Positions 30,174-31,169 of a stretch of 64,000 nucleotides of DNA are shown here, in pieces. Location of the stretch: assembly GCF_963921235.1 (NCBI RefSeq), contig NC_086108.1, forward strand, positions 59,894,001 to 59,958,000, in the 5' to 3' direction. The notes below the pieces were generated by a model. That model was not told the origin of the DNA. It did no database searches and saw only the letters and a list, made by a program, of their open reading frames with translations. The stretch comes from Mobula hypostoma. Taxonomy: Eukaryota. Within the stretch, counting starts at the first letter, position 1. Each line of letters begins with the position of its first letter. The position numbers and the translations under genes are program-made.

Positions 30174-30914
30174 TCACAATTTGGACTTACAGACCTTGAC
30201 GAAGTGGCCCTTCTTTCCGCAGCTGGAGCAGGTAGCTTGTCGATCCATGCAAAGTTTCCAGGGGTGCTTCTCGAGTCCGCAGAAGTAGCACTTCATGGAC
30301 TTGTGACTGGCAGCAGCTGAGGTCAATTCGCCAGTGTGTTGCGGGGTCTGAAGCGCCCACGAGGCCGTCAGGGGATCGCGTGCCTGGAGAGACTCGGAGT
30401 TATGCAGAGCGGCCTCCAGCCTGTCAGCCAGTTCAATCGCCGAACGTAAGGTAAGGTCAGCTTTTTCCAGCAGCCGCTGGCGCACATACACTGATCTGGT
30501 CCCCGTGACGAAGGCGTCTCTCACTAGGAGTTCTGCGTGTTGTGCCGCCGTCAGCTCCTGGCAATTGCAGGCTCGCACGAGTGTCTGTAGGGCCCGGACA
30601 AACTCAGCACTTGATTCCCCAGGCCGTTGTTGCCGTGTCGCTAAGCGATGCCGAACATAGACGCTGTTTATCGGCCGCAAGTATTGTTCATTGAGGGCGC
30701 TCTTCGCGCCCTTGTAGCTCGGCTGGTCTCTGATCAGCGAATAGACCTGTGGACTGACCCTGGAGTGTAGAACTCTGTGCTTCGCTATGGGGTCGGTCGC
30801 TTTAATCTCCTCTAGGTACGCTTCGAAGCAGGCCAGCCAGAGTTCGAAAGCGTTTCCAGCTTCAGGCGTTTGCGGATCGTGGTCTAATTTGTCGGGTCTC
30901 AGAGACTGTTCCAT
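30174..30914 (-). pseudogene. gag: Gypsy copy 1 gag
   Basis: 246-aa ORF starting 26 nt after the 5' LTR, with two zinc knuckles CYFCGLEKHPWKLC and CSSCGKKGHFVKVC. Confidence 0.88.
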
Positions 30915-30940
30915 GCTTTAAAATTTTCAGCGAATAAAAT

Positions 30941-31169
30941 TGAAGCACCTTCAATAACTCCAAAAGACTGAAGTTGGGTAATATACTGAAAGGCTTTTAT
31001 TCGCTGTACAATACGACCTCCATGCTGAGTATCTGCCCCCGGGATTGAGGGGGAGGGGCAAGGCAAAATCACCTTTATACAGGAACTATGGGAGGAGCCA
31101 CAAGGGGAGTCAGCGGAGGGGCGTGTCCAGACAATTAACCCAGTTACAACATATATATGGTTTACCACA
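30941..31169 (-). repeat. 5' LTR of Gypsy copy 1 (229 bp)
   Basis: Minus strand TGTGGTAAAC...GGTGCTTCA with TATAAAG and AATAAA; it matches the other three LTRs of this family in the window. Confidence 0.95.

Follow-up and report, generated by a model that had tools for sequence, protein, structure and literature searches.

How does a Ty3/Gypsy retrotransposon begin reverse transcription if no tRNA primer-binding site follows its 5' LTR? The question is raised by a Ty3/Gypsy family of which two decayed copies, sharing 90.3% identity across 4.3 kb, lie on the minus strand of the window (the whole 64-kb stretch of DNA analysed here; Table 1). The usual view takes self-priming to be characteristic of the Tf1/sushi chromoviruses; it has been predicted for certain plant lineages as well and, to our knowledge, demonstrated experimentally for Tf1 only. 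The present family belongs to Ty3/Gypsy by its TG..CA LTRs, target duplication, polypurine tract and domain order (gag-PR-RT-RH-IN), and the best PDB match of its RT is Ty3 (E 1e-100). Two independent guides, the remaining LTR copies and the 5-bp target duplication CTGAC, fix the bounds of the copy 1 5' LTR. Because the LTR pairs are only 91.3% (188/206, copy 1) and 92.5% (211/228, copy 2) identical, both insertions are old. The LINE-like insert in copy 1 (24550-26925) has a short duplication at its ends, and related pieces lie at 31735-32514 and 60100-61585. ARAGORN made one tRNA-Gly call (28206-28296), antisense inside pol and likely spurious.

Table 1. Positions of the element parts in the window, with predicted features named as such.
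Feature	Position	Strand	Details
Copy 1, whole element	24343-31169	minus	TSD CTGAC (5 bp) at 31170-74 and 24338-42
5' LTR, copy 1	30941-31169	minus	229 nt, TG..CA
LTR arm, predicted self-primer	30995-31006	minus	11-nt AG..AAA unit (30995-31005) plus one base; AATAAA inside
Predicted primer-binding site, LTR+2..+13	30928-30939	minus	Complement of the arm; unpaired A at 30940
Stem starting directly after the arm	30947-30994	minus	GCCT.. pairs with ..AGGT in U5
7-bp hairpin	30939-30955	minus	Absent from the fold, not conserved
Alternative promoter-like pair, ray family (inference only)	31043-31079	minus	TATAAA (31074-79) and initiator-like TCA about 33 nt downstream
gag reading frame	30174-30914	minus	Two CCHC knuckles; ATG at 30914, 26 nt past the LTR
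Broken pol pieces	27165-29763	minus	Protease region, RT (YLDN at 28964-81), RNase H, integrase; no chromodomain
Polypurine tract and first 36 nt of copy 1 3' LTR	26926-26980	minus	
LINE-like insertion splitting copy 1 3' LTR	24550-26925	minus	About 2.4 kb
Remainder of copy 1 3' LTR	24343-24549	minus	Own arm copy at 24397-24408
Copy 2	34735-39152	minus	TSD ATAGG; LTRs 38921-39152 and 34735-34962
Copy 2 primer region	Arm 38975-86, PBS 38908-19, gag ATG 38894	minus	

On the sense strand of copy 1, the LTR ends in CA at 30941 and is followed by a single A (30940) and then by TTTTATTCGCTG (30939-30928). These 12 nt are the exact reverse complement, without a mismatch, of the LTR stretch 31006-30995, which holds the AATAAA. 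The first-pass annotation had described this as a Gypsy element in which a complement of its own LTR, rather than a TGG, follows the LTR, with a perfect 12-bp inverted repeat over the AATAAA and a gag ATG 26 nt beyond the LTR; all of this holds, coordinates included (ATG at 30914). In the predicted fold this region is a single long hairpin (z = -6.7; none of 200 shuffles does as well), and the 12-bp duplex has a pairing probability of 0.89 in the ensemble. The 7-bp hairpin that had been noted in addition, across the LTR end, is present as sequence, but its probability in the same ensemble is 0.0 and it is not conserved: the sum across families is 84 against a null of 80.6, with 398 of 1500 shuffles as good. 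We therefore rejected the idea of a conserved U5-IR stem at this place; the second helix that is conserved begins directly after the arm.

Copy 2 shares the layout, as annotated, with 11 of 14 positions paired (9/12 over the primer site), but its fold is no better than shuffles (z = -1.1). The copy 1 arm survives at 11 of its 12 letters in the 3' LTR of copy 2, and two of the three mismatches in the copy 2 pairing are G-to-A at CpG, so these mismatches are likely decay after insertion. The consensus fold of these two window copies contains no compensatory pair. The incomplete pairing of copy 2 (9/12) would speak for chance, or for a local duplication artefact of copy 1, against which stands the rarity of such matches: just 29 of 63,730 window positions have a flawless 12-nt inverted partner in the 200 nt upstream of them.

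To place the feature in a wider context, we turned to relatives of the family. The best named protein matches were from Mobula (82-90%), Hypanus and Hemitrygon, followed by other cartilaginous fish, a tunicate, shrimp, nematode, sea anemone and scorpion, which makes a ray the probable host; the metagenome relatives used here are the best 80 of 540 confirmed stretches. A search of viral contigs gave 27 stretches, none confirmed, and hence no relative. Four sequencing-run contig sets contain many LTR copies at 80-99% identity, although contigs cannot show transcript starts or ends. A ray gene model named TERB1 (P0026) matches part of gag at 76% and is probably an element inside a gene model. The clade is a large group of single-ORF elements of about 1200 aa, and in an RT tree (no outgroup; window copy and L068 left out) its families are divergent.

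The first set for scoring comprised 45 loci whose match starts in the first 15 residues. After three without usable upstream DNA there and two without the junction motif were dropped, the remaining 40 loci and the two window copies made up 42 elements in 22 families at 80% gag DNA identity. The LTR end was fixed by LTR pairs in eight families (window included) and elsewhere by the CA/ATTT motif (slash at the LTR end), so counts of this motif are partly circular, the motif itself having set most LTR ends. With L031 left out as too short, 21 families were compared through the first-listed member of each; these families share ancestry and are not independent, and many of the contigs are collapsed assemblies.

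The first-pass annotation had called the lineage non-chromoviral and 'Mag-like'. No chromodomain was found in any of 20 relatives at Pfam E values up to 0.1, nor in the window integrase. The clade resembles the Mag lineage (CFG1, DRM, Hydra2-1, Gulliver, SURL) and Cigr-1 in its short LTRs, single ORF and two-CCHC gag. Cigr-1 is also similar in size and is a candidate for the clade. The label 'Mag-like' finds no support in the RT motifs, which are unlike those of the five named Mag references compared (by eye, with no tree): in the supplement of PMC11673190, which is without Cigr-1, Mag references read CGD(Y/F) or CLDP, whereas the clade reads VVDYSQ or IDYSQ. No RT of that supplement contains DYSQ, PWRAQ or DLKSAYHQ, and none of the clade motifs searched for occurs in the supplements of PMC6238403, which hold names. 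Kuafuorterviruses were rejected as a home for the family because their RT motif is IADD, VADD or LADD, against YLDN in the window copies.

A tRNA-type TGG was looked for within 6 nt of the LTR end in all 42 elements and found in none. Instead, the position is occupied by a complement of the element's own LTR. The own-LTR score is at least 11/13 in 20 of the 21 families and at least 12 in 17 of them, as opposed to 30 and 4, respectively, of 420 cross-family pairs. The two arms also covary across relatives, a check that the first-pass annotation had proposed: over +5..+13 in 20 families, 172 of 180 cells are Watson-Crick, against a permutation mean of 100.7 and a maximum of 128 in 20,000 trials, and four of these columns each show four pair types. 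Moreover, the register is fixed. The last arm base pairs with LTR+2 in 20/20 families and LTR+1 is paired in 0/20, while the loop between arm and site ranges from 20 to 65 nt. Pairing also exceeds chance at +14..+17 (54/80 vs 34.4, maximum 51) and falls to chance at +18..+21 (21/80 vs 20.3).

We then looked for the pairing in loci chosen without the junction motif. Forty-eight of the 80 loci have a gag N-terminus and eight of these had previously gone unscored; five of the eight, four of them new families, show 13-18 bp of pairing at the equivalent place. Two others (L037, L071) have no inverted repeat and nothing LTR-like upstream, and one further locus is without upstream DNA. Among the held-out loci, L027 has an arm that ends in AAGA and contains no poly(A) hexamer; it keeps AG at -11, and its site matches. 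A change from G-C to T-A is present in both LTRs and in the site of L011, the other eight loci of its nine-locus family having G-C. Conversely, the second-last arm base of L005/L062 (one locus) is mismatched in both LTRs, and L069 is degraded and scores 8.5. Locus L057 (311-475) is nested in the clade by the RT tree and has the CA/ATTT junction, yet shows no pairing (7.5/13) and no complement in its 143-nt LTR; it is either an exception or a chimeric contig. In another locus, L023, the primer site and last LTR bases occur twice (178-250), around an insert of about 40 nt with its own inverted repeat; faulty strand transfer may have produced this, or else an insertion that duplicated its target.

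Pairing of the site with the element's own LTR is thus a real, clade-wide feature. Chance or a local artefact of copy 1 is refuted by the own-LTR versus cross-family scores, the covariation and the held-out loci, and we give it practically no weight. The same data bear on whether an internal tRNA fragment, or some other host small RNA, primes the element, the match to the LTR being incidental. Certain Copia lineages are known to prime from half-tRNAs (PMC6317226), but a host primer would keep the site constant, and here its letters differ from family to family, each fitting its own LTR (the best partner in 18/21 families and tied in one). A host primer is therefore highly improbable.

What, then, is the paired LTR stretch? 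Counted from the end of the arm, A stands at -11 in 16/20 families (T in its place in the other four); position -10 is G in 16/20, position -9 is a pyrimidine in 19/20, and a T-rich stretch precedes them. The arm is mostly an 11-nt AGY...AAA unit, which is followed by a conserved stem. AGY in a T-rich context resembles an initiator, whose consensus is given as TCAKTY (PMC3601003), and the Tf1 primer is reported to be the first 11 bases of its own RNA (PMC7175516). For the stem directly after the arm, the summed run is 90 vs 56.3, a value reached by 0/3000 shuffles, and (A/G)CC(T/A) after the arm pairs with a downstream GG(T/C) in 15/20 families. No stem downstream of the site recurs in 20 MFE folds, and no TATA lies at a fixed distance upstream of the arm across the 20 families.

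In 13/20 families the arm contains AATAAA or ATTAAA, and in 12/20 a distance of 15-26 nt separates the gag ATG from the LTR. Both points are consistent with a duplex whose main role is to conceal the poly(A) signal at the 5' end and, perhaps, the context of the gag start, with priming left to something else. In line with this, the AAUAAA in the modelled copy 1 fold is predicted to be unpaired with a probability of at most 0.01 when the site is present and of 0.41-0.99 when it is removed. Nonetheless, pairing is kept in L027 and in seven of the 20 representatives although their arms contain no AWTAAA, and the site of L027 follows the change in its arm. Masking has no need of a fixed LTR+2 register, nor do the elements have any other primer site. 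Poly(A) masking on its own therefore fails, both on the fixed register and on the families whose arm has no hexamer. Masking, which the first-pass annotation had offered as an alternative or addition, thus survives as a predicted side effect in the copy 1 fold; it cannot be the main reason for the duplex, and as such we consider it very unlikely. As a separate observation, the gag ATG of four families (L006, L038, L044, L051) lies only 15-17 nt from the LTR end (LTR+14..+18). There the extended duplex reaches the start-codon context, which could couple priming to translation.

Since the clade has no tRNA site and its start point pairs with its own LTR, it likely primes with a piece of its own RNA, and Tf1-like self-priming is the best reading and, in our judgement, a probable one. 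At the level of sequence, the covariation, the fixed register and the 11-nt unit lend good support to the proposal that a Gypsy lineage lacking a chromodomain primes itself independently of tRNA. Priming is favoured over masking because priming needs a fixed register and masking does not. The absence of TGG, the duplex, its fixed register, the covariation and the second stem are seen directly in the clade, and the start, annealing, cleavage and priming steps are taken from Tf1 (PMC7175516, PMC10085805, PMC4600332). By this analogy, the arm would be the first bases of the element RNA and serve as primer in place of a tRNA. Transcription would likely start at the A of the initiator-like AGY, the first 11-12 nt would fold onto LTR+2..+12, and the next bases would close the second stem in U5. 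As in Tf1, cleavage by the element's own RT/RNase H would then follow the ..AAA, and synthesis from the 3' end so created would first copy one unpaired base and next U5 and R. The poly(A) hexamer, which lies within these 11 nt in most families, would be hidden at the 5' end but accessible in the 3' LTR.

The pairing at +14..+17, which lies upstream of the proposed start, is not accounted for by a 5' primer of strictly 11 nt. Therefore, transcription must begin at several points further upstream, or else the site pairs with the 3' arm copy as well. This raises the alternative that self-priming draws on another source, namely the arm copy at the RNA 3' end (the U3-R junction), closing a loop, or a longer primer started upstream. 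Pairing indeed reaches 16 bp, which would extend into U3 if transcription began at AGY, and the ray family has an upstream TATA/initiator-like pair, from which a start would fall 40 nt before the arm; TATAAA is present in two of the four window LTRs and AATAAA stands at that place in the other two. However, the distance from AGY to the arm end is exactly 11 nt across families, the 20 families have no TATA in common at a set spacing, and cutting the 3' copy would presumably lose most of the R needed for strand transfer. Such another source seems to us quite unlikely, a judgement that applies only to the part that goes beyond Tf1-like self-priming, the core claim being common to both.

The RT has a peculiarity of its own. 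Its active site reads YLDN, not YxDD, in both window copies (28964-28981 and 36944-36961, minus strand), and among 117 RT-bearing relatives YxDN occurs in 80 and YxDD in 29. The equivalent change in Ty1, D211N, is reported to keep polymerase activity and lose transposition (PMC2148107); our literature search found no paper on YLDN with reverse transcriptase. One could join all of these features in a single reading: a large non-chromoviral clade of animal Gypsy elements would have evolved self-priming independently; its 11-nt unit would be initiator, primer and poly(A) signal at once; the extra four to five paired bases would exist only in the 3' copy, so that the two RNA ends compete for the site, with the genome alternating between a closed loop and a form primed at the 5' end; and a YxDN RT, with asparagine at the second catalytic aspartate, would run the process. 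Taken as a whole, this combination is rather unlikely.

If Tf1-like self-priming is right, several consequences follow. A widespread animal clade that has no chromodomain and yet the same 11-nt geometry suggests that the mechanism arose more than once or predates tRNA priming, and the possibility that self-priming is the older of the two has been raised before (PMC3601003). Self-primed elements would escape control by tRNA fragments, and annotation methods that demand a tRNA site would overlook them. The sequence also predicts an exact cap site and an RNA of 11-12 nt on strong-stop DNA.

How does the clade compare with known systems? Our search, which stopped short of most subscription papers and of Repbase Reports, found no published description of its primer site. 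Some Repbase entries reportedly call invertebrate Gypsy families self-primed. The literature that we found describes self-priming for Tf1/sushi elements and predicts it for plant Tcn1 and TAR, self-priming being called from at least 10 bp of complementarity starting 0-5 bp after the LTR (PMC6317226). The window element has such complementarity too, but TAR belongs to another superfamily (Ty1/copia) and Tcn1 is a chromovirus, both from plant hosts. Other elements without TGG are organized differently: Skipper of dictyostelids is reported to have no complementary region in its LTR (PMC5006619), and the hairpin of fungal GalEa lies inside the internal region (PMC6934838).

The closest likeness is to Tf1/Tf2 (S. 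pombe), Tj1, Tosmo, Tcry and Tf1/sushi elements in general, which likewise have no tRNA site and in which a site after the LTR pairs with an LTR stretch, with an 11-nt unit and a flanking stem (PMC7175516, PMC10085805, PMC4600332). Flanking duplexes are required by Tf1 (PMC10085805), and the stem after the arm (30947-30994) is the predicted counterpart of one of these. Of the three duplexes of the Tf1 'pretzel', the clade thus has the primer duplex and the stem after the arm, the third not being evident in the folds. In contrast to Tf1/sushi elements, the 20 relatives and the window integrase have no chromodomain, the arm mostly doubles as a poly(A) hexamer and the pairing runs to 12-16 bp; the RT motifs also differ from those that the PMC11673190 supplement prints for TF1, Sushi-ichi and Maggy (by eye, no tree). 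In sum, the clade does not appear to be a member of Tf1/sushi, but its primer region probably works like the self-priming of Tf1.
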